This document shows positions 5,795-51,278 of a DNA stretch of 64,000 bases, in pieces. The stretch is from Deltaproteobacteria bacterium (GTDB lineage Bacteria > Bdellovibrionota_B > Oligoflexia > Oligoflexales > Bog-1112). The stretch covers positions 2,666 through 66,665 of the forward strand of contig CANIBL010000005.1 of the NCBI GenBank assembly GCA_947466225.1. Direction: 5' to 3'. Numbering within the stretch: the first letter of the stretch is position 1; every line of letters begins with the position of its first letter. Under the pieces are notes generated by a model. That model searched no databases and had not been told where the DNA came from. It saw only the letters and a list, made by a program, of their open reading frames with translations. The position numbers and the translations under genes are program-made.

Positions 5795-5895
5795 GACGGG
5801 ATTCTCCTGGTGATGAAACGCAAATGTCTATCATACAAAAAGTAGGGTGGGTATGATGAGTACAGTGCGGCTAGTATACTCACTCTGATGGGGAT

Positions 5896-5940
5896 TGTCT
5901 CGAGGGAGATCCCCGACGGCCTTCGGCCTGGGGATGACGG
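5896..5940 (+). repeat. REP-like palindromic element, copy A
   Basis: TCTCGAGGGAGATCCCCGACGGCCTTCGGCCTGGGGATGACGG. It shares the TCGAGGGAGAT core and the CCCC..GGCC-loop-GGCC..GGGG hairpin with copies at 9610, 30534 and 45115. Confidence 0.7.
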
Positions 5941-5992
5941 AATGGCTGAGGCCTGGGGATGACGGAATGGCTGAGGCCTGGGGATGACGGAA
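5926..5992. repeat. 25-bp tandem repeat, 2.7 copies (GCCTGGGGATGACGGAATGGCTGAG)
   Basis: Units at 5926-5950 and 5951-5975 are identical; a partial third unit spans 5976-5992. It lies in the divergent lysC / MBL-hydrolase intergenic region. Confidence 0.95.
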
Positions 5993-6009
5993 ATAAGAAA
6001 GGATGCCTT

Positions 6010-6819
6010 GTGAGTTTTTCCTTACGAGTTCGGATATTAGGGTGCGGAACTTCTACCGGGGTACCGATTATTGGGTGCAGTTGCCGGGTATGCCAAAGTG
6101 TAGAGCCCAAAAATGCCCGATTGCGCTCTTCCCTTTTGGTTGAGGTACAGTCTCCGACGCTTCGGTTTGTAATCGATACAACCCCAGAGTTTCGGATCCA
6201 GATGCTGCGAGAACGAGTCTCTCACTTGGATGGGGTACTGATGACCCATACCCATGCTGATCACTGCCATGGATTTGATGATCTGCGGGCGTTTTACTTT
6301 TGGCACCCGCGGGCCATGCCGGTGTACATGTCTCATGAACATGTGCGGGATTTTCAGCGCCGGTTTCCCTATTTATTCCAAAAAACTGGGTATTTGGGCA
6401 CGGTGGCCTCCGTGGCGTTGCACACCTTGTCTCAAGAGGCCTTCCGAGTGGAGGGGGTGACCATTGAGCACGCAGAGCTGCCTCATGGTTCGACTGTGTC
6501 TACGGCGTATCGCATCGGGTCTTTTGCCTATGCCACAGATTTTCAGTATGTACCGGAGGCGGTTATCGAGCGATGGAAAGGGAAAATTCATACGATGGTT
6601 GCAAGTGGATTGCGGTTTCATCCCCACCCTACCCATTCCAGCATCCCAGAAACCATTGAATTGTTTCGTCGATTGGGCGTCAAGCGGGGAATCTTGTCCC
6701 ATTTGACCCATGACGTAGACTATGTTCGAGATTCGGTTGGATTACCCTCGGGGGTAGAGTTGGCCTACGATGGCATGGTGCTAGATGTGCTACCGCTTGC
6801 TGGGGGGGCAATTGCGTGA
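6010..6819 (+). CDS. MBL-fold metallo-hydrolase (PhnP-like)
   Basis: THTHADHCHGFDDL (HxHxDH motif) and N-terminal ILGCGTSTGVP. Start chosen at GTG 6010 (AAAGGA 6 nt upstream) because the listed ATG 5959 lies inside the tandem repeat. Confidence 0.8.
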   Translation: MSFSLRVRILGCGTSTGVPIIGCSCRVCQSVEPKNARLRSSLLVEVQSPTLRFVIDTTPEFRIQMLRERVSHLDGVLMTHTHADHCHGFDDLRAFYFWHPRAMPVYMSHEHVRDFQRRFPYLFQKTGYLGTVASVALHTLSQEAFRVEGVTIEHAELPHGSTVSTAYRIGSFAYATDFQYVPEAVIERWKGKIHTMVASGLRFHPHPTHSSIPETIELFRRLGVKRGILSHLTHDVDYVRDSVGLPSGVELAYDGMVLDVLPLAGGAIA

Positions 6820-8324: not shown

Positions 8325-8351
8325 TCGGTATAGATCAATGCGGGGGATTGT

Positions 8352-9482
8352 ATGATCATCGGAGTGCCCAAGGAAATCAAGATACGAGAAAATCGCGTTG
8401 CCATCGTGCCGGGGGGGGTAAAAATGCTGACCTCCAACGGGCATCGGGTGCTGATTGAAAAGGGAGCTGGTGTCGGGGCTGGGATTTCGGATGGTGTGTA
8501 TCAGGAATCTGGTGCCACCATTGTGAATGATGTGGAGGAACTCTGGGGCAGTGCAGAGATGATTATAAAGGTGAAGGAGCCTATTGAGGCGGAGTATACC
8601 CGTATGCAACCGGGTCAAATCCTCTATACCTATCTTCACTTAGCGGCTGAACCTGCGTTGGCAAAGGTATTATTGCAGCGTCAGGTGCGCGCGATTGCCT
8701 ATGAAACCATTCAGCTGGCGGATGGATCCCTTCCCCTGCTTCGACCCATGAGTGAGGTGGCCGGTCGTATGGCGGTTCAGGTCGGGGCCCAATGTTTGCA
8801 AAAGCATAATGGGGGAAAAGGGATCCTGCTCGGAGGGGTGCCTGGTGTGCGACGAGGTCGAGTGGTGATTTTGGGTGGCGGTGTTGCTGGGACAAATGCT
8901 GCAAAGATGGCGATCGGACTGGGGGCTGAGGTGACTATTGTGGATGTCAATCAGTCTCGGCTTACCTACCTCGATGATATCTTTGGAAATCAAGTGACTA
9001 CGTTGATGTCAACGCCTGAGATCATTGAACGTACCGTACTGGCCTCTGACTTACTGATTGGTACCGTATTGGTTACTGGAGCAAAGGCCCCTCGGGTGGT
9101 TTCAAAAGACTTGGTTCGACGCATGGAGCCAGGGTCTGTGATTGTGGATGTGGCCATCGATCAAGGCGGTTGTGTAGAAACCATTCGACCCACTACCCAT
9201 GATGATCCCATTTACTTCTATGAAGGCATTAGTCACTACGGGGTGACCAACATGCCAGGAGATGTGCCATGTACCAGTGCATATGCGCTGACTAACGTTA
9301 CGTTGTCTTATGCGTGTGACATTGCAAACAAGGGCTTTGATCGAGCCATGCGAGAGTCAGCACCTTTGAGGCTGGGGTTAAACACCTATGAAGGGGAAAT
9401 GACCCACGAGGTCGTCGCGCATGCATTGGGGTATAAAAGACAAGATACCAGCGCGCTGTTTTCACAGAATGTAGCGGTGTAG
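8352..9482 (+). CDS. ald: Alanine dehydrogenase
   Basis: MIIGVPKEIKIRENRVAIVPGGV N-terminus, NAD site VVILGGGVAGTNAA, VDVAIDQGGC. Confidence 0.9.
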   Translation: MIIGVPKEIKIRENRVAIVPGGVKMLTSNGHRVLIEKGAGVGAGISDGVYQESGATIVNDVEELWGSAEMIIKVKEPIEAEYTRMQPGQILYTYLHLAAEPALAKVLLQRQVRAIAYETIQLADGSLPLLRPMSEVAGRMAVQVGAQCLQKHNGGKGILLGGVPGVRRGRVVILGGGVAGTNAAKMAIGLGAEVTIVDVNQSRLTYLDDIFGNQVTTLMSTPEIIERTVLASDLLIGTVLVTGAKAPRVVSKDLVRRMEPGSVIVDVAIDQGGCVETIRPTTHDDPIYFYEGISHYGVTNMPGDVPCTSAYALTNVTLSYACDIANKGFDRAMRESAPLRLGLNTYEGEMTHEVVAHALGYKRQDTSALFSQNVAV

Positions 9483-9609
9483 TCGTGACGGATTGTTTAT
9501 TAAGAGAAAGTAACGCTCTGTTTTTATAAGAAAATTAAATTTCCCCCTCTCTGTTGTCTCCTGAAAAATCAATTTTCTCCGATACTGTACTCAATCAACT
9601 TCCGATTAT

Positions 9610-9666
9610 CATCTCCCTCGATCGAGGGAGATGCCCGTACGGCCGAGACGGCCTGGGCATGACAGG
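9610..9666 (+). repeat. REP-like palindromic element, copy B
   Basis: A perfect 24-nt palindrome CATCTCCCTCGATCGAGGGAGATG (9610-9633) is followed by the hairpin CCCGTACGGCCGAGACGGCCTGGGC and then ATGACAGG. It is nearly identical to copy C at 45115. Confidence 0.8.
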
Positions 9667-9705
9667 AAGAGTACGGACGGTAGGTTTTTTTTCCACGGGG
9701 CATAT

Positions 9706-11304
9706 ATGAAACAGAGACGCATTTTTTGGCTTGGCTCATGGTTGATGCTAGTTGGAGCATGTAAGTCTATGGATCATGCCTCATCTGATGCTCTTCCGCC
9801 GAGTGCATTTGAGACTCAATCTGCAGTGGGAAAGATTTCCTCCAGCGAAAAAGTTTCAGCAGAAAATTTGACGCTTCATACGCTGGAGCTGAAAATACTC
9901 AAATTGGGAAAAAATACGTATCCGTATATTGTGATCGCACAGCCGCCAAAGAGTGATTTTTTCCAAGCAAAGATTTGCACAGACAAAGTTTGTCAAGACC
10001 CACGTGAGACCACACAGTCTTTTATTTTCCTACCTGGGCTGCAACCTGGAGCGTATACCTTCCAAGTGCGTGCTTGTGTCCAGGCCGTACATGCAATAGA
10101 CGCTGGGAATCCATGTGGTACTTGGGTAACGAAAGGACCTTATACCCAAACCCCAGTTTTAGATCCGGATTTGGACAAACTATTGGTGCAGCAGGATCAA
10201 TCGTTACAACAGCTCTCCTTGTATGGAAATTCCATGTACCAGCTGTTGAAGCAGTATGAAGATGCCGTATCTACTTGCGCTGTCTCTGCAGACCAGCGTC
10301 CAAGTGAATTGGACGAAGTTGATATTCACAATGCTCTTGCGCTGGGGCCAGATGCATTTTCGTTCTTAATGTACCCATTGAATCAAACAGCCCCCTATGC
10401 GCAGGTAGATACCTCCGTGCCCTTTTCTTTGTCTGATTATAATGCATTGTCTTATCAACAGAAAAAAATGGCAGATCAGATTTTCCAATCCAAAAAATAC
10501 CAGTTTACCTCTGACAATCGATTGGTAGATGCTCAAGGGACGCGATTGGATTATTACGCAATTTTACAAGGAATTTCCACATCGCTTGATGCCACCTATA
10601 TCACATATCGAGTCTATCTTGCATTGGATGCAAAGGAAAAAAAGGCACTCAGTTTGATCATAGGAGAGGAGAAATATCGTTTTGATGACGAAGTGTTGGT
10701 GGATGGAAAAGGGGTGCCTGTGGATCGGTCTTCTACTCTATCCGATGCAAAAGACCGGGGTCAGACGATATCGGATGATGAGGTTTCGCCACCAGCGGAT
10801 AGTAAAGCCTCCGTTTCTTTGCCCGCACTCTTGGGCTCTATCGCGGGATTTTTCCTGGGTGCATGGGTGCTAAAATCCGGATGGAGTACATGGCAACAAG
10901 GCAGAACCACAACAGAGGGAGCGGTAAAAGATAAGCTAAACGTAGAGGTGGAGACTTTGAAGCAGATCGAATTGAATAAAGTTTCAGGAGCAGGAGCAGA
11001 GAAAATCAAGTCTGCTCAGGAGAAGCTAATGAAAAATGCTCAATCTACAGAATATCGGGGGAACCGGCGTGTTGTACAAGGCAAAGTATTGTTTGGCTTC
11101 GGTGCTGCTCTGGTATTGGCATCCATAATTACCTCTGCTTTGGCAGGAACGGGAAATTTGAACCTTGCAGCAGATGCCAACAGTGGTGTTTGTCCCAATT
11201 TAGATGCCATGCCTTCTCAATTGAAAAAATTGCAATCTGAGATTCAACAGGAAGTGACGAATATGGATGCTTTGGGGAAAACCATTTCGAGTCATCTACT
11301 ATGA
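9706..11304 (+). CDS. Membrane-anchored lipoprotein, paralog family 1 (function unknown)
   Basis: Start moved to ATG 9706 (MKQRRIFWLGSWLMLVGAC, lipobox) because the listed 9631 start lies inside the REP element. It has a Cys-containing Fn3-like module (PGAYTFQVRACV), a late TM segment (IAGFFLGAWVL) and a C-terminal coiled segment. It is a paralog of 27400-28641. Confidence 0.75.
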   Translation: MKQRRIFWLGSWLMLVGACKSMDHASSDALPPSAFETQSAVGKISSSEKVSAENLTLHTLELKILKLGKNTYPYIVIAQPPKSDFFQAKICTDKVCQDPRETTQSFIFLPGLQPGAYTFQVRACVQAVHAIDAGNPCGTWVTKGPYTQTPVLDPDLDKLLVQQDQSLQQLSLYGNSMYQLLKQYEDAVSTCAVSADQRPSELDEVDIHNALALGPDAFSFLMYPLNQTAPYAQVDTSVPFSLSDYNALSYQQKKMADQIFQSKKYQFTSDNRLVDAQGTRLDYYAILQGISTSLDATYITYRVYLALDAKEKKALSLIIGEEKYRFDDEVLVDGKGVPVDRSSTLSDAKDRGQTISDDEVSPPADSKASVSLPALLGSIAGFFLGAWVLKSGWSTWQQGRTTTEGAVKDKLNVEVETLKQIELNKVSGAGAEKIKSAQEKLMKNAQSTEYRGNRRVVQGKVLFGFGAALVLASIITSALAGTGNLNLAADANSGVCPNLDAMPSQLKKLQSEIQQEVTNMDALGKTISSHLL

Positions 11305-12746
11305 ATGCCCGGTGTTGGATTTTTTTACTCAGTTTACTTGAAGTCTCTTGTCGCCATATTTCTACAGGTAGAGATAGCGGGCAAGAGATGACGGGCACAC
11401 AGAGTACAACTCAACAGGCGCTGCAGCCACCTCTAACCCCAGTAGAAAAAGCGCTGCCTGGACAAGGAGAGGAAAAGGAAATCGGCCTCTCTAATTTCTT
11501 GGGTTATTGTCGAGCACCAGGTACGCCGGATGTGCAACATACGATTTCGGTTCTGCTTGCCTATGTGAAAGAGTCCGATTGTATACAGGCAGACAAAGCA
11601 CTCTCTCAATTAACACGACTGATTTTACGAGGCCAAGAGCTCACGGATGTGCGACCATTGGCTGGCTTTACCCAGTTGCAAGAGCTAGATCTCGATAATA
11701 ATAAAATTGAATATATTGCGCCGATTGCTTCGTTTCGAAACAAGTTGACCTACTTTTCTTTCAAACAAAATATTGCCTATGAAATTGAAAAAAATGCGCC
11801 CGTGGTCTATTTGGATGAGCACGAGCAATATAAATTGTCGAGTGCCATGTGGTATCTGCAGCAAGTGAGGGTAGCAGATACGTCTGGGCTAGATTTGCCA
11901 GCATTGGGAAATATGCCTGGAGGGAAAAAGGGAAAAGATAGTTGGTTGTATATTCCAAAAGATCGGCAGTACAAAACTATTGTCGCTGGAAATACCTCTA
12001 CTGCGCATACCTACGTTTTTGTTAAGTACGGAGTGGAGGGCCTATACACGGACATTTTCTATTGGTTTTTTTATCCGTTCAACGGGCCTGGAACGGCAGA
12101 AACATCCTTGGTTCCAGGGTATCGATTTGAAACCTATCCCATTGGGATTCACGAAGGAGATTGGGAACAAATTCAAGTTAGGCTAAATCCCGACCATACG
12201 ATAGAAAAAGTAGGGTTAAAGCGGCATGGGACTACCAACTGGTATCAAACTGAAGACTTGCTATGGGAAGAGACTCACCCCATCATTTTCCCGTCTCGAA
12301 ATGGCCATGCGGCAACCCCTTCCATCGATGGGATTACGTACCATCTTACCGGTGGGGTGGCGTTTTACGACATCGCCTCTTATGGGCAAAGGTTTGAAAG
12401 TTTTAGACCGGAGCATATTATGCTGTGTGCCACTAGCTTACATCCTCAGTTCATTTTTGATCCCACTGTAGCGCAATGGCATCATTTTTTTGGCCGATGG
12501 GGGGCCCCAAAAAAAGGATTTGATGTAAGTGCAGATTCAGAAAGTTTAGTAAATGCGTTGCTGGGGGGAGATCATGTGAGTGGCGTGTTGGATTTTCCCA
12601 TTCGTATGGCTGCGCGAACCCTATTTCAAACCCTTCTGTTAGATGGAAATGTTAGGGAAAAATTGGACGTAGAAACAGGAGGGGGGCCTCCCTCTCCTTT
12701 TGAAGGCTGGAATTCAGAGTTTCCATTACCGGAAGATCAACAGTAG
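11301..12746 (+). CDS. Secreted LRR + Vps62/DUF946-like protein
   Basis: ATGA overlap with the upstream gene. Signal-like N-terminus, LRR units (LTRLILRGQELTDVRPLAGFTQLQELDLDNNKIEYI) and a Vps62-like core (YVFVKYGV..IFYWFFYPFNGPG..IHEGDWEQIQVRL). Confidence 0.7.
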   Translation: MNARCWIFLLSLLEVSCRHISTGRDSGQEMTGTQSTTQQALQPPLTPVEKALPGQGEEKEIGLSNFLGYCRAPGTPDVQHTISVLLAYVKESDCIQADKALSQLTRLILRGQELTDVRPLAGFTQLQELDLDNNKIEYIAPIASFRNKLTYFSFKQNIAYEIEKNAPVVYLDEHEQYKLSSAMWYLQQVRVADTSGLDLPALGNMPGGKKGKDSWLYIPKDRQYKTIVAGNTSTAHTYVFVKYGVEGLYTDIFYWFFYPFNGPGTAETSLVPGYRFETYPIGIHEGDWEQIQVRLNPDHTIEKVGLKRHGTTNWYQTEDLLWEETHPIIFPSRNGHAATPSIDGITYHLTGGVAFYDIASYGQRFESFRPEHIMLCATSLHPQFIFDPTVAQWHHFFGRWGAPKKGFDVSADSESLVNALLGGDHVSGVLDFPIRMAARTLFQTLLLDGNVREKLDVETGGGPPSPFEGWNSEFPLPEDQQ

Positions 12747-13914: not shown

Positions 13915-13944
13915 CATCCTCTCCCTCGATTGAAGGGGAGGATG
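13915..13944 (+). promoter_or_regulatory. Hairpin that pairs the Shine-Dalgarno of the downstream methyltransferase gene
   Basis: CATCCTCTCCC (13915-13925) / GGGGAGGATG (13935-13944) around a 9-nt loop. GGAGGA (13937-13942) lies 9 nt before ATG 13952. Confidence 0.5.
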
Positions 13945-13951
13945 ATGGCGT

Positions 13952-14824
13952 ATGTTTTTTCTGTTAGGAAAGGAATTTCTTGTGCGTGAGGGATATGAAT
14001 TATTGGATGCGGGGGATTTTCGTAAGTTGGAACAAGTCGGTCCGTATCGGGTAATCCGCCCCTGCCCACAAGCTGTGTGGCATCCACAGCGTTCTACGCA
14101 AGAGTGGCAGGGTGCCCATGGGGAGTTTTGTCGCAGTAGCAGTGGAAATGGAACGTGGAAATTGCGAGGCAAAATCCCTGCCTCTTGGAACATTTCCCTC
14201 TATGGACACCAAGTTTTGGTGCGTCTCACAGATTTTGGCCACCTGGGTTTTTTTCCCGAACACCATCTTCATGGGGTGATTCCCTGGGCGCAACAGCATC
14301 CTGGTAAAAAGAAGATCCTGCATTTGTTTGCTTACACTGGAACCGGGAGTGTGAGCTTGGCTGCATGTGGGATGGATGTGGTACATGTCGATGCTTCCAA
14401 AACGAGCTTGGCCTGGGGCAAGGAGAACGTCGAGTTGACGCCTGTTACCGGATCGATTCGATGGATCCTTGATGATGCGCATAAGTTTGTGCAGCGTGAA
14501 GCCCGGCGTGGGCAGCAATATGATGGTATTCTTCTTGATCCTCCGAGTTTTGGACGAGACCCAGCTGGGAAGGTATGGAAAATTGAAGAGCATTTGCTGC
14601 CGCTCTTAGAAGACCTCAAGTCATTGCGAAGTCCGGAGTTCTCTTTCTTCCAACTGACCTCACACTCGCCTTTTTACACGCCTGTTGTCTTGGAAAATCT
14701 TGTGCAAGATTGGTGGGGATCTGCACCAGGTATCGTGAGCTCATTTGAAATGACGGTGCAAGAAACAAGTTCCAATCGTCGATTGCCGTGCGGTGCTGGA
14801 GCCTGGATTCGGAGGGAATTTTGA
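13952..14824 (+). CDS. Class I SAM-dependent RNA methyltransferase (RlmI/RlmK-like)
   Basis: LHLFAYTGTGSVSLAACGMDVVHVDAS (SAM motif I region) and ILLDPPSFGR (motif IV DPPxF). Confidence 0.8.
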   Translation: MFFLLGKEFLVREGYELLDAGDFRKLEQVGPYRVIRPCPQAVWHPQRSTQEWQGAHGEFCRSSSGNGTWKLRGKIPASWNISLYGHQVLVRLTDFGHLGFFPEHHLHGVIPWAQQHPGKKKILHLFAYTGTGSVSLAACGMDVVHVDASKTSLAWGKENVELTPVTGSIRWILDDAHKFVQREARRGQQYDGILLDPPSFGRDPAGKVWKIEEHLLPLLEDLKSLRSPEFSFFQLTSHSPFYTPVVLENLVQDWWGSAPGIVSSFEMTVQETSSNRRLPCGAGAWIRREF

Positions 14825-28668: not shown

Positions 28669-30513
28669 CTAATAAAACACCGGCTCCAGGGGGAAAAAAC
28701 GTCCCTGCTTCTCCAACCCAGCAGATGGCAGAAACCTAGGGCCCTCCTGGTCTGCCAAATGGACAAGGTTGTCTCGCAAGGATCGGATCCCCACAAAATC
28801 TGCGTATTTTAGCAGTCCCCCCCAAATTTCGGGAAATCCCAATCCTTCGACAAGCAAAATTTCGATGCTCTCGAGAGAAGCGTATGGATACTGCTCCAGG
28901 TGCGCGCACGTGGCATGCAATAGCACCAATAAAAAGCGGTTGACGATATCGGCCCCTTCCCACTCGAGAGTAGAGGTAGCGGTAGGTGTTGAGGTTTCAC
29001 CTCGTTGTGCCATCCATCGAAAGGGCCCAACGCGGAAGCCAAACTCTTCCAAGGCTTTGTCGATGGCGGCAGTCGAAAGGCCTTTTTCTGCCAACTGAAG
29101 CGCTTCAGAAAAAAAGAGGGTTTCCATATGAGGCAAGAAAAAAGGTCCCTCTGGATAGAGGGTGAGAGGGGTTTTTCCGATGCGATGGAGTCGGGCTTCG
29201 ATCAAAGTACTATCTCCGCCTTTTGGGCAGCAAACCTCAACAAAGTCACTGGGGGATGGCAAAAAGTAGGCCAGAACTGTTGTCGCCCCCGTATGCAGTT
29301 TGGCTGGGCTTTGGGTCAAATCGACTACCCACTCACAATGGGAAAGTCCCGTCTGTGAACGGCACGGAGACAGTCGTGCCATATACTGGGGTACCTTATG
29401 TAGCGCAAGTTCCCTTTTGTCTACTTTTCGCAAGAGAGCTTCGTAGACCTGTCGCAAGAGGCCCCCCATTGCTTCCACATTTTCTTCATACAGCAGGACA
29501 CGATGCCCGTGAGTCACGGCACACAAGGCAAGGTCTCCATTTTGTCGGGAGGCGCCGAGGAGTCCGATGGTAGGACAGCTGGCGGGGGATATGACTGCAG
29601 ATGCTTGTACCCGCCTTCGAATCCGATGCAGGTGGCTGAGGCTTTGAGCCTCTCGCGTGGAGATGGAGGCGGCGAAAAGCTCGGCTTCTTTTTGTAGGGC
29701 TTTGGCCCCCGTAGTTTCGAAGCTGTAGGCCACAGCGTCGAGGCAATGATAGGCGGCCGGTTGACGACCTTGGGTTTTTTCTTCGATGGTTTCTCTCGTC
29801 TTTTTAAAGATCATCTTGCGTCCAATGGGGTTTCCCTCCATAGCCCATTTTGGCAAGCTGCGAGAAAACGCCGAGGTACGTGCAATGGCGGCGGATAGGC
29901 GTTTGTGTTTGCTCACCCGTTGCAGCAACACTCGGCATTGTGATTCCATCAGAGGTGCCGGGACACAGGCGTGGAGAAGGCCGGTTTGATACGCTTTTAT
30001 ACCGGAAATCATTCGCCCGGTGAGAAGCAAATCCAAAGCAGTTTGCAGTCCCACGAGGCGGGGTAAGCGATGGAGGGTGCCCGCTTTGGGGAGAGAACCA
30101 ACCTGGATATCAAGAAATCCGAGTTGGGTGGCCGGGGTTCCGATGCGCCAATCGCAGGCCAATGCCAACTCCAGTGGCATACCGATGCATCGCCCGGGTA
30201 GTAGGCAGACCACCGTGTACGGCAGAGCATGTAGCTGCTCTGCTAGGGCTTGCCAGGTATGGGAATAGGCTTGTGCCGCTTGACGAGAAGGAAAGTGGAG
30301 CACTTCTGCTGCGCTGGTATCTGAGCCGAAGTACAAGGAATCTGTGCTGCGGATCAGGAGACCCACCAGTTTTTTCTGCGCCAATTCTGAAAGAGCCCTA
30401 CGCAACGCAGTTTGGAGCTCCAGTTGCAGCGGGTCAAATGGCTGAGGGAAAAATAGGGTCGCGGTTTGGTCATCTCCGATTTCATAATATAGATCCATTT
30501 TCGTCATGGCCAC
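28669..30513 (-). CDS. Divergent FadJ/FadB-like enoyl-CoA hydratase / 3-hydroxyacyl-CoA dehydrogenase fusion
   Basis: Crotonase-like N-terminal part (LELALACDWRIG, GTLHRLPRLVGLQTALDLLLTG) and a C-terminal HAD-like part. It sits directly downstream of a thiolase gene on the same strand. Confidence 0.7.
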   Translation of the reverse strand: MAMTKMDLYYEIGDDQTATLFFPQPFDPLQLELQTALRRALSELAQKKLVGLLIRSTDSLYFGSDTSAAEVLHFPSRQAAQAYSHTWQALAEQLHALPYTVVCLLPGRCIGMPLELALACDWRIGTPATQLGFLDIQVGSLPKAGTLHRLPRLVGLQTALDLLLTGRMISGIKAYQTGLLHACVPAPLMESQCRVLLQRVSKHKRLSAAIARTSAFSRSLPKWAMEGNPIGRKMIFKKTRETIEEKTQGRQPAAYHCLDAVAYSFETTGAKALQKEAELFAASISTREAQSLSHLHRIRRRVQASAVISPASCPTIGLLGASRQNGDLALCAVTHGHRVLLYEENVEAMGGLLRQVYEALLRKVDKRELALHKVPQYMARLSPCRSQTGLSHCEWVVDLTQSPAKLHTGATTVLAYFLPSPSDFVEVCCPKGGDSTLIEARLHRIGKTPLTLYPEGPFFLPHMETLFFSEALQLAEKGLSTAAIDKALEEFGFRVGPFRWMAQRGETSTPTATSTLEWEGADIVNRFLLVLLHATCAHLEQYPYASLESIEILLVEGLGFPEIWGGLLKYADFVGIRSLRDNLVHLADQEGPRFLPSAGLEKQGRFFPLEPVFY

Positions 30514-30533
30514 GCCGCCTTGGCCGTATGAGA

Positions 30534-30589
30534 ATCTCCCACTATCGAGGGAGATCCCCGACGCTCTCTTCGTTCGGTGGGGCTGACGG
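30534..30589 (+). repeat. REP-like palindromic element, copy D
   Basis: ATCTCCCactatcgaGGGAGAT followed by CCCCGACG..CGGTGGGG and CTGACGG. It lies between the two minus-strand fad genes, antisense to them. Confidence 0.65.
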
Positions 30590-30637
30590 ATAGAAGAGAT
30601 TGTTTTAAGTTGATTGTGTCTAAATATGTCATGGTTT

Positions 30638-36760: not shown

Positions 36761-36790
36761 TTTATATTTCTCGTTTTATTTTTTTTTCAA

Positions 36791-37025
36791 GGGAACCAGC
36801 TGCGCAGTTTCCCCATACCCCTCCTTGCTGGGGACGGGAGAGAGAGGGTGATCAGAAAGATCGGATATAAGCCCAAGGCCGGCGCGATGATCGGATCCTC
36901 CCAACTCTCAAAATCGCAGGCAAAATTTCCGTCAAGGACCTACTACTCTTACTTGCGATTTGTGACCCGTCGGGGCCCACCGATCTGCTGCCCTTGGGCT
37001 TATATCCGATCTTTCTGATCACCCT
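36791..37025 (-). repeat. Twin element copy 1 (candidate structured RNA/leader, read on the minus strand toward uvrB)
   Basis: A perfect 34-bp helix (36845-36878 / 36992-37025) encloses a conserved interior with an inner AAATCGCA/TGCGATTT stem (36911-36918 / 36954-36961). The 53-nt tail (36791-36843) matches copy 2 at 52/53 positions. Confidence 0.75.
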
Positions 37026-37051
37026 CTTTTCCCTCCGAAGAGGAGAAGAAC

Positions 37052-37294
37052 ACGAGAGCTTGGGAAAAAATCCCAGATAAGACACGGGCAGCCAGACAGA
37101 AGGGGCCCAACGGGTCATAAATCGCAGCCATAGAATTGGCTGCCCATGACGTGAGTTCAATCTGCGATTTTGAGAGGTGGGAAGATTCTGTCTGAGCGCC
37201 GGCCGTGTCTCCTCATAGGATTGTTTCCCAAGCTCGCGTTTCTCTCCCGTCCCCAGCAAGGAGGGGTATGGAGAAACTGCGCAGCTGGTTCCCC
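37052..37294 (+). repeat. Twin element copy 2 (candidate structured RNA/leader, read on the plus strand toward actA)
   Basis: A helix of about 31 paired positions out of 36 (37052-37087 / 37203-37239) has a different sequence from copy 1. It has the same interior blocks, an inner stem at 37119-37127 / 37162-37170, and a tail at 37241-37294. Confidence 0.75.
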
Positions 37295-37451
37295 ATAATA
37301 AGAAGATAGCAAAAAAACCAACGCCACAGGCAACTTTACCCCAAACCACATTTTTAGATAGAGTTTCCCATTTTTCCATGTAAAATCCGAATTCTGTATC
37401 GAATGATGGGCGAAAGTGCCTCCCGGTGCACAAAGGGTTATTTCCTATCAT

Positions 37452-45021: not shown

Positions 45022-45114
45022 GTAATAGGGGAAACTACCCGTGGCGTTTCCCTTTATACCTTGCCTCGCTTTATCTTGCCTGATCTTCGCCTTTTCTATG
45101 CCATGTAGGTACTT

Positions 45115-45167
45115 CATCTTCGATCGAGGGAGATGTCCATGCGGCCGAGGCGGCCTGGGCATGACAG
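45115..45167 (+). repeat. REP-like palindromic element, copy C
   Basis: CATCTTCGATCGAGGGAGATGTCCATGCGGCCGAGGCGGCCTGGGCATGACAG. It lies between the convergent actF and glutaredoxin genes. Confidence 0.8.
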
Positions 45168-45192
45168 AATTAGATTGAAATGATTGCCTAAA

Positions 45193-49158: not shown

Positions 49159-49303
49159 AATGGGCCTCTATACATACACAGGGTGAAAGGCAGACTATAC
49201 CTGTCCGGGCCTCATTTGCAACTGTTGTGGGGGGTGTGTTGAGTGGGGATAGAGAGAATTTTTATTTCACCGGGAATCCCCTTCGTTCACGGAGGGGAGG
49301 ATG

Positions 49304-51016
49304 TCAAGGAGACAGCGTATCTTTGAGTAACACAGGTGGGTAGGCAGGTAAAATAAGAGAGCCTCCTGCAAAACTAGAAAGAGGATAGCTAAAACCATGC
49401 GGGAGTTGGAGAGCATAACGAGAGGTGCCAATTCCTCGGTATGTGAACCACAACCGATCTAGATACACAGTGGTGATGGTACCAAAAAAAGCACTCAACG
49501 GTTCAATAGCGGGAAACAGTGGCTCACTCTCTGTCCATCCATCACTTCTTAAGCAACCATCCGTAAGTCCGCTACAGTGAAGCAATCGGGTGGTGTCTGT
49601 GAGAACATAGAGCTGCTCATTTATTGGGACTATAAAAGGGGCGCCATCTGCTTGACCAATCACGATGGGAGAAGAGAAAGCCCCTGCCTGGCAACTGACA
49701 GTGGTGCAAGTAAATAGCCTGGTATCATTGGTTAAATCGGCGTGATAGACCATATAGAGGAAATCAGCCGTTGAGGCAGCTGACAGTGAGCTAACATTGC
49801 TGCCGATGGCGGGTTGATACTGCGTCCATGCTGGCCCTCCAATGCAAGCTACACTGCCGGTTGTCATGGGGCAGACCGAAACTTGGAGGGAAGCACTGCC
49901 AGGTGTCTGCTGGAAAATTTGAATGAGGTTATTTCCATTGGATACGACCTGTAGGCCTGTACCTCCACCACCAAGACCGTCATTTCCAGTCCAATTTCCC
50001 GCTAGCGCGCAGTCTGTATTTTGACTGCAGGCGTAGACACCGCGGGTATTTGAAAGACCCTGATAGAAAAACACAAACAAGGAACCAGTTGCACTAACGA
50101 GTATGGTGTTGTCGATGGCCCCTGGTATACTTGCCGTCACCCCGGTCAGCCAGTTTCCCGGCTGGGTGCAATCACGGGCCTCTCCGCAAGAAAGGGTAAC
50201 GAGTTGGGTCCCTCCATTAAAGTAGGAGAGATACATCAGCTTGCCAGATCTGGAGATGAAAACCGTTCCCGATAGGGAAGTTATACCAGCAGCAGTGACC
50301 AGGGTTTGTGGACTGGACCAATCTGAAGCTGCTATACACAGTTTTGAAGAGGAGGGCACACAAGTGGTGATATACAGATGGGAGCTATCCAAATAGGCAT
50401 GAAATAACGTCGCTTCCTCCCCCAAATTCAGCTCCAAAATCACGTCTCGTTCGCCATTGTCAGCCCCCCAATTTTGCATCAAATTCTGACAGGCTCCGCC
50501 ATCTTGGGTGCTCAACAAAGGGGAAAATACTGCAGTTGCAGTTGTGAGACGGTAGAGGGATTGCTGATCTGGGGTTTTGGCTGGATCGTTGAGTCGGTAG
50601 ACAAAAGGTGGTGAATTATCCACTGTGGGGCGGAGGCTGTGTATGAAGCTAGGTCCTGTGCATCCAGCATCGGCAAAATGCACAGGGGTACTTTGGGTAA
50701 GCCCAGTGGTTTTATTTACAGAGAAGAAATTTTGTCTGTCAGTATCTTGTAGAAAGAAAAAATCTCCGTCCTCATCGAGAAAGAGACCCACGATTTTTGA
50801 GGTTGCGTCTCTTACAATCTCCAACAGGTCGGTATTTACAGAGGTTTGCGTAGAAGTATCCGAAGCTGTGGTTGTCGTGGAAGCTGTAGCTACGGCGTTC
50901 TTTTTTTGCACAGCCTCTATATTTTGTGTACTAACTTGTAGGTTGGAGGCCTCTCCGCCGCATCGAACCGGTGCCAACCCAAGAACCAGTATGATTTTCG
51001 TGAAACGGTTTACCAT
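49304..51016 (-). CDS. Secreted repeat protein (six C..C..W units, beta-propeller-like), function unknown
   Basis: Start chosen at the Met giving MVNRFTKIILVLGLAPV. Six units of about 50 aa, e.g. LVTLSCGEARDCTQPGNW, GVYACSQNTDCALAGNW, RLLHCSGLTDGCLRSDGW. Confidence 0.7.
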   Translation of the reverse strand: MVNRFTKIILVLGLAPVRCGGEASNLQVSTQNIEAVQKKNAVATASTTTTASDTSTQTSVNTDLLEIVRDATSKIVGLFLDEDGDFFFLQDTDRQNFFSVNKTTGLTQSTPVHFADAGCTGPSFIHSLRPTVDNSPPFVYRLNDPAKTPDQQSLYRLTTATAVFSPLLSTQDGGACQNLMQNWGADNGERDVILELNLGEEATLFHAYLDSSHLYITTCVPSSSKLCIAASDWSSPQTLVTAAGITSLSGTVFISRSGKLMYLSYFNGGTQLVTLSCGEARDCTQPGNWLTGVTASIPGAIDNTILVSATGSLFVFFYQGLSNTRGVYACSQNTDCALAGNWTGNDGLGGGGTGLQVVSNGNNLIQIFQQTPGSASLQVSVCPMTTGSVACIGGPAWTQYQPAIGSNVSSLSAASTADFLYMVYHADLTNDTRLFTCTTVSCQAGAFSSPIVIGQADGAPFIVPINEQLYVLTDTTRLLHCSGLTDGCLRSDGWTESEPLFPAIEPLSAFFGTITTVYLDRLWFTYRGIGTSRYALQLPHGFSYPLSSFAGGSLILPAYPPVLLKDTLSP

Positions 51017-51176
51017 AGAGCAGCATCCTTTCGTCGTAAATAGGGGTTGTTCGCGTCTCCTTTGTATCGGTTTGAGGTGTCTGCTACCCAAATAGCGACG
51101 TATTTGACGACAGAGAAAATTTGTAATCAACTGTTTTTCATCCGATTTTTTTGCTGCGCGTGTCTGCTTTTCAATT

Positions 51177-51216
51177 CTTTCCTACCCATACAGCCGAGGC
51201 AGTCTGGGCAGGAAAG
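51177..51216 (+). repeat. Degenerate REP-like element, copy G
   Basis: CTTTCCTACCCATACAGCCGAGGCAGTCTGGGCAGGAAAG; compare copy B CCCGTACGGCCGAGACGGCCTGGGC..AGGAAG. It lies about 60 nt upstream of ATG 51279. Confidence 0.5.
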
Positions 51217-51278
51217 AGAAAACAGGACGTGGAAAAATCAGGGTATACTAAAAGGAAACTCTACCAAGGAGCTCTTGT

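Follow-up and report, generated by a model that had tools for sequence, protein, structure and literature searches.

The copies flagged here are genuine and belong to a small repeat that is non-coding and forms hairpins. The window, which is the whole stretch of 64,000 nucleotides that was analysed, holds a dispersed family of five units at four loci (A, B, C and D). All of them match one covariance model, with scores of 52.7-76.5 bits and E-values from 2e-13 to 4e-20. The family is best read as a mobile element of the REP/REPIN kind that is non-coding, non-autonomous and specific to its lineage, and this reading is given a probability of roughly 0.55.

A dispersed family of two-tier hairpins

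The covariance model, R1, was built from nine units of the window and its close relatives. When it was run over the whole window with filters off, no other match scored above 21.5 bits, and the runners-up were reverse readings of the palindrome in B. A sequence-only reading of this DNA had proposed four clear copies, A to D, and these are borne out both by reading the loci and by the R1 matches (Table 1). They share one layout, in which TCGAGGGAGAT is followed by a GC-rich hairpin and then by ATGACRG.

The family is non-random. Both TCGAGGGAGAT and the 16-mer GGCCTGGGSATGACRG occur exactly five times in the window. If one mismatch is allowed, TCGAGGGAGAT occurs six times against about 1.3 expected, a count that 0 of 100 shuffles reach. 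Copies made as fragments of one duplicated segment, the alternative that the sequence-only reading itself had raised, would share extended flanking homology. Since the copies are alike only over about 55-60 nt and their flanks are unrelated, segmental duplication is excluded. The element has no coding capacity.

Table 1. Copies of the repeat in the window and their parts (L numbers denote contigs of relatives)
Feature	Position	Strand	Description
Copy A	5880..5989	+	110-nt insert; BLAST breakpoints against the empty alleles of L100 and L112; R1 52.7 bits
A, full unit	5894-5945		One full unit, preceded by left-arm remnant TCACTCTGATGGGGAT and a short spacer
A, tandem array	5925-5992		Distal half-hairpin plus tail in 2.7 perfect tandem 25-nt copies (TRF)
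Copy B	9608..9673	+	R1 76.5 bits; fold z = -4.3
B, hp1	9610-9633		Palindrome
B, hp2	9631-9660		Hairpin
B, tail	9659-9666		ATGACAGG
Copy C	45114..45169	+	Same type as B; R1 73.4 bits
Copy D	30495..30620	.	126-nt insert, inverted doublet; R1 60.7 and 60.0 bits
D, left unit	30495-30551	-	
D, centre	30534-30555		Imperfect palindrome
D, right unit	30538-30596	+	
D, outer segment	30597-30620		24 nt
Copy G	51172..51222	+	hp2-like but degenerate hairpin ACCCATACAGCCGAGGCAGTCTGGGC, lacking the motifs GGGAGAT and ATGAC; fold z = -3.9

The basic unit is about 45 nt long and consists of (TC)GAG(GGAG)AT, a two-tier hairpin and then ATGACRG. The hairpin has a lower stem of 6-7 bp, a conserved 5'-side bulge (R)(T)AC, an upper stem of 4-6 bp that is free in sequence, and a loop of 3-5 nt. 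The lower stem takes in the AT of GGGAGAT, which pairs with the AT of ATGAC. The consensus fold is an 11-bp two-tier stem, and all units fold alike.

The stems are kept through sequence change. Variants GCCC/GGGC, CCCC/GGGG and GTCC/GGGC of the hp2 stem, which had been noticed before, are confirmed in the sequence, as is the perfect 24-nt palindrome in B. Upper stems differ completely between subfamilies and always pair (GGCC/GGCC, GGCTGC/GCAGCC, GGTCCC/GGGACC and GCGAAC/GTTTGC), and the lower stem shows a clean swap between CG and GC. Paired cells amount to 86.9%, against 31-50% (at most 49.5%) when the partners are slid, a level that none of 500 shuffles attains.

The bulge and the terminal heptamer are conserved across genomes of about 74% identity. 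The invariant foot and terminal motif reads GAT...ATGACGG (reverse complement CCGTCAT), and the GTAG tetranucleotide of enterobacteria is absent from the hairpin foot. In known REPs the literal foot motif is lineage-specific, so the absence of GTAG is a weak criterion.

The contexts of the copies differ, as had been suggested from the sequence. Some lie 5' of genes, one lies 3' between convergent genes and one lies inside a coding start, and the neighbouring genes are unrelated. The neighbours of A are genes for an aspartate kinase and an MBL-fold hydrolase, and B is located between the gene for alanine dehydrogenase (AlaDH) and a gene for an unknown protein. Copy C is found between convergent genes, one ActF-like (the last gene of the Alternative Complex III, or ACIII, cluster) and the other for glutaredoxin. 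It is 92% identical to B over 48 nt, and the left half of its hp1 has a 3-nt deletion.

Copy D has as its neighbours a thiolase gene and a fadB-like gene for enoyl-CoA hydratase (ECH). It is indeed present at 30534-30589, where it had been described as a clear copy, but it is an inverted doublet that carries an extra reverse unit. The statement that all copies are intergenic also has to be corrected for D, which sits in codons 7-8 of the downstream gene relative to close relatives.

One rival reading takes the elements as a cis-regulatory RNA (a riboswitch, leader or attenuator) or as an intrinsic terminator recurring near several genes. Copies A, B and G do lie 5' of genes in the sense orientation, and their hairpins are stable, with the z-score of B as an example. 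However, Rfam gave no matches at gathering thresholds over the whole window, and relaxed thresholds returned only generic long-hairpin (miRNA) noise. No T-run follows the hairpins on either strand, the tails being ATGACRG and ATCTCCC, and terminator and promoter scans at B and C returned no sites. In addition, the neighbouring genes are unrelated, their orthologues in relatives are without the element, and C lies between convergent genes. The cis-regulatory reading is largely refuted, with hardly any probability left to it.

Three further hairpins had been put forward as degenerate or possible members. Copy G can stand as a degenerate hairpin relative, which by eye agrees with B in 20 of 26 hairpin bases. 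Its place as a copy is weakly supported, with scores of only 12.1 and 7.9 bits against R1. It is framed by an inverted repeat of its own, CTTTCCT/AGGAAAG. Neither its fold (z = -1.1) nor R1, which gives no match there, supports the hairpin at 49277-49307, and the one at 13915-13944 was not accepted, being a separately conserved hairpin of a single locus.

The hairpin at 13915-13944 (ATCCTCTCCCT...AGGGGAGGAT) holds GGAGG in its 3' arm, about 10 nt before the start codon (ATG at 13952) of a SAM methyltransferase gene. It is kept in L112 with compensatory changes (A-T to C-G, T.G to C-G) and is absent from L116. This hairpin may sequester the Shine-Dalgarno sequence.

A strain-variable segment adjoining prfC (RF3), 49200-51256, has copy G at its edge. 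In the window this segment carries a 608-aa minus-strand ORF without a Pfam match. A gene of 1098 aa on the opposite strand is found in L125 and L126, and L121 has nothing there.

All five units of the singlet type (A, B, C, G and a copy named B2 in relatives) are on the + strand (two-sided sign test, p about 0.06). The GC skew of the window is positive over its whole length, and the leading strand is therefore presumed to be the + strand.

Two exact occurrences of the 10-mer CAATCAACTT are found in the window, against about 0.1 expected, at 9592-9601 (+) and 30607-30616 (-). Both sites are just outside a left terminus, one in the native-looking left flank of B and the other in the outer segment of D, and they have the same orientation relative to the element. 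The pair could reflect a target preference, a longer element, or copying together with flanking DNA.

Inverted doublets and turnover among relatives

Contigs of relatives were found in freshwater metagenomes by exact-protein look-ups. One of these metagenomes, ERR3761200, comes from the Rimov reservoir (Czech Republic). Nucleotide identity to the window is 99% for L115, 92-93% for L112, 91-97% for L103, 90-92% for L101 and L102, 89% for L100, 87-88% for L113 and L114, and 70-80% for L116-L124 (NCBI GCA_947475005.1 and kin).

The complete element is an inverted doublet, with two units arranged around a short spacer. This form is found in D and in three copies on L116 (about 74% identity), where R1 finds three pairs of inverted matches, each in an intergenic region whose counterpart in the window is empty or different. 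The L116 elements are 91 nt long and have one fixed asymmetric architecture, CCGTCATCCCAAGG-[TCCCGAAGGGA]-CCGTATGGGATC-[CCTGCGTTTTTATCGA]-GATCCCATACGG-[CTGCnnnGCAG]-CCTTGGGATGACGG, with two copies in one orientation and one in the other. Their units are homologous to those of the window in a unit-by-unit alignment, and their termini are CCGTCAT...ATGACGG.

Copies A, B and C look like derivatives in which the left arm is largely or wholly missing. At their left end, B and C read TCAT-CTCCC..., which would be the left terminus of the doublet (cgTCAT) joined to the spacer once the left hairpin had been lost. Of the left arm, copy A seems to have retained 16 nt (CTGATGGGGAT; cf. CGTATGGGAT), and it also seems to have amplified its distal half in tandem.

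Among relatives with identities of 87-99%, both filled and empty alleles are found at four sites (A, B, B2 and D), with clean breakpoints at A (110 nt) and D (126 nt). At site A, L100 and L112 read GTATAC-ATA-GAAAAAAGAAAGG, with only ATA in place of the insert of the window. The insert is also present in L113 and L114, where it has two tandem units instead of three. Site B is filled in L112 and L115 and empty at that position in L100. At site B2, directly 3' of the AlaDH stop, a copy is found in L100, L113 and L114, and there is none in the window, L112 or L115. Site D is empty in L101 and L102. At site C, a 78-nt segment of the window that holds the copy is replaced in L103 and L104 by a gene cassette of 1.8 kb.

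The window, L113, L100 and L112 between them show all four combinations of presence and absence at A and B2, which requires repeated gain and loss, or recombination. Turnover of the element is fast. Some empty alleles differ by small replacements and are not exact excisions, so deletion or recombination could be behind some of the polymorphism. Short-read contigs end inside copies (L001 in B, L113 and L114 in B2), which suggests further loci. The start of L001 also lies inside A, where the tandem array alone could cause the break.

Density is four to five loci in the 64-kb window and three loci in 21 kb of a relative; REP families typically have tens to hundreds of dispersed copies in a genome. 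The pattern TCGAGGGAGATN{12,40}GGGSATGAC was too loose and, in genome contigs, gave about 98 chance or coding matches among the matches listed, from unrelated high-GC taxa. A tighter pattern gave only 7 chance matches in JGI metagenomes, and two scans of viral contigs gave none.

The elements could also be structures maintained by the host, such as mRNA-stabilising hairpins or sites for nucleoid or regulatory proteins, which are spread and lost by recombination, gene conversion and slippage. This would suit the conservation of the bulge and heptamer across distant genomes, the empty alleles that are small replacements rather than clean excisions, the tandem amplification in A, and the 10 nt CAATCAACTT in D, which match the left flank of B as if copied with flanking DNA. 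On the other hand, copies are missing at orthologous sites of very close relatives with no sign of change in the neighbouring genes, their contexts vary (some lie 5' of genes, one 3' between convergent genes and one inside a coding start), and they are associated with no consistent class of gene. Host maintenance with spread by recombination is a minor rival and improbable.

A serious rival, if on balance an unlikely one, is a MITE of the terminal-inverted-repeat (TIR) type. Such an element would be an internally deleted derivative of a DDE insertion sequence (for example IS630/Tc1-like, with TA duplication), moved as double-stranded DNA by cut and paste. Its arms would be terminal inverted repeats and not functional hairpins. 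The size and the lack of coding capacity fit, and the L116 doublets have long inverted termini, CCGTCATCCCAAGG.../...CCTTGGGATGACGG. The terminal inverted repeats of D are CGTCATGGCC / GGGGCTGACG, and at its site, the one exact filled/empty pair, the insert is bordered by a duplication of TA (or ATTTA/ATCTA). Copy B is bordered by TA in L112.

Against a TIR-type MITE, the three L116 doublets have no duplication at their ends (GA/AT, CT/CA and AT/AT), TA is common in these AT-rich spacers, and no insertion sequence with matching ends was seen. Furthermore, the upper stems are self-complementary within each arm but unlike between the arms, which points to selection on local hairpins and not on identity from arm to arm.

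The REP/REPIN reading remains the preferred one, and mobilisation would then occur in trans. The hairpins would extrude in single-stranded DNA, and a transposase encoded elsewhere in the genome, preferably of the HUH/Y1 RAYT type, would recognise the hairpin foot and the terminal heptamer. It would then excise the element and re-insert it, and effects on neighbouring genes would be incidental, except at D. A RAYT-type Y1 transposase is the preferred guess because of the doublet plan, the separate hairpin with covarying stems in each arm, the invariant foot and terminal motif, and the lack of duplications at the L116 copies.

REPINs are composed of two inverted REPs and a spacer, and singlets are decaying remnants of them (PMC3337134). 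The doublet plan, hairpins and foot motif found here, together with the L116 ends without duplication, fit the REPINs so described (PMC3337134, PMC3116915). RAYTs act in trans, are usually single-copy and occur in about a quarter of species (PMC5581495; PMC3337134).

Pfam scans of about 40 ORFs of the window show no RAYT, other transposase or integrase, in agreement with the sequence-only reading, which had seen no RAYT-type transposase there. Among the Pfam calls in about 150 kb of related contigs, a small sample, there is likewise no RAYT (PF01797) or other family-linked transposase. Besides the missing RAYT and the lack of GTAG, some points count against the REPIN reading. The TA (or imperfect 5-nt) duplication and the outer sequence of D, which carries 11 and 31 nt beyond its CGTCAT...CTGACGG termini, are untypical of clean REPIN transposition, and several empty alleles are inexact. 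Taken as a whole, the claim that this is a dispersed family of REP-like palindromes and not the regulator of a single gene agrees with the limited homology, the site polymorphism, the doublets in a relative, the kept stems, and the negative results for Rfam, terminators and promoters.

Several other features were observed in the window and its relatives. A non-coding element of 525 nt (36780-37304), located between uvrB and the ACIII cluster, has terminal inverted repeats of 64 nt (91% complementary, GGGAACCAGCTGCGCAGTTTCC...) and nested internal inverted repeats. A shorter relative of it is found in L125 and L126 (3159-3400) between glpX and an M13 peptidase gene, where the gap in the window is 19 nt. 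L121 has a terminus similar to its own at about 11620, upstream of a DDE_Tnp_1 gene. The 525-nt element probably represents a second family of MITEs, of the TIR type. As a partner of the hairpin elements, the one DDE gene that was found (L121, 12014-13426) was considered and rejected, since its upstream sequence and its ends are unrelated to theirs.

The 1.8-kb cassette (L103 1637-3395, corresponding to window 45100-45180) lies between glutaredoxin and the last ACIII gene, and carries HTH_17, DUF4258 and two unknown ORFs. In L116, a MazE/PemK toxin-antitoxin pair (8338-8900) is found between the AlaDH and NMO genes. Its counterpart in the window (9706-12746) consists of two large genes, one unknown and one Vps62/LRR. 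Positions 1-2000 of the window have a G+C content of 0.34, against about 0.49 elsewhere in the window, and their ORFs have a weak Pkinase match or none. This part may be foreign DNA.

Copy D at a stop-start junction

In the relatives with an empty site D, the ECH gene starts within the stop of the thiolase gene, the two sharing ATGA, and the ECH protein starts MKTMTHLYYEIGDD. In the window, D is inserted after codon 7 of the ECH gene. The original ECH ATG (30641) now opens an ORF of 45 codons that runs across D and ends at the TGA at 30506-30504. This TGA overlaps the ATG at 30507, which belongs to the terminal cATGAcg of D and is in frame with the remaining ECH (MTKMDLYYEIGDD).

The insertion thus broke the ECH start, and the terminal cATGAcg of the element rebuilt a stop-start overlap that is predicted to restore translation. 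This follows from the reading frames, since the ATG of the element is in frame with ECH and overlaps the TGA of the new ORF.

ORFs that begin at the ATG of the element are also seen at A (5984-6013, 9 codons) and B (9659-9709, 16 codons). They end on TGA codons that overlap the downstream starts, GTG (6010) at A and ATG (9706) at B.

A general role can be imagined from this, in which cATGAcg and the upstream GGGAG form a portable module for translational re-initiation that allows insertion at operon junctions or first codons without polar damage. If such a module were general, there would be selection for ends compatible with coupling, which would be a novel way for hosts to tolerate REP-like DNA. 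However, the short-ORF geometry at A is not kept in L113, and for that reason a general coupling role is considered very doubtful. A Shine-Dalgarno and start module made of GGGAG, hairpin and ATG was considered separately. It is weakened both by the loss of this geometry and by the pairing of the A and T of the ATG in the lower stem.

Comparison with known elements

Whether of the REP/REPIN or the MITE type, the family is ordinary mobile "junk" DNA that has not been described before in this lineage, and knowledge of this class of element is unchanged by these results. It is a well-delimited REP/REPIN-like family in an uncultured bacterium of freshwater reservoirs and its relatives, and the exact filled and empty sites make its turnover visible. 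The element can be used as a strain marker and can explain assembly breaks in these metagenomes. It also offers a clean test case for REPIN-RAYT pairs in this lineage. Copy D illustrates neatly how an insertion into a coding start was rescued by the element's own ATGA motif.

TIR-type MITEs of bacteria include the Correia elements of Neisseria, RUP and BOX of pneumococci, and Nezha of cyanobacteria. They resemble the present family in being about 60-130 nt long and non-coding, with inverted termini, in their intergenic sites and operon junctions, in the occasional expression signals that they bring to neighbouring genes, and in their polymorphism between strains. Unlike them, the family described here has no consistent target duplication, no parent insertion sequence was seen, and both arms form hairpins of their own, in which the stems covary.

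PATEs, which are derived from IS200/IS605, have hairpin-bearing ends and a presumed single-strand mechanism in common with this family. Their ends have subterminal hairpins in direct orientation on one strand, and their target is a fixed tetranucleotide. Here the arms are inverted, and the left flanks differ (TAC, TTA and ACT).

In BIMEs two types of hairpin, the Y and Z REPs, are paired, and here too one doublet pairs two types. The REP, BIME and REPIN systems with RAYT (Y1 HUH) of Enterobacteria and Pseudomonas (PMC3116915, PMC3337134, PMC3479197) differ from the family in several ways. Here the Pfam calls for the window and for about 150 kb from related contigs show no RAYT, the foot motif is CCGTCAT/ATGACGG instead of GTAG, and the hairpin has two tiers and a bulge conserved on one side. 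A TA duplication may be present at one insertion, which also carries extra flanking DNA, and the host is an uncultured freshwater bacterium. In both cases, however, the elements are short, imperfect, extragenic palindromes that are dispersed. Inverted doublets with a spacer are the complete form, singlets are apparent remnants, and the foot motif is conserved. Both also have a lineage-specific sequence that diverges between related genomes, and both are present in some strains and absent from others.
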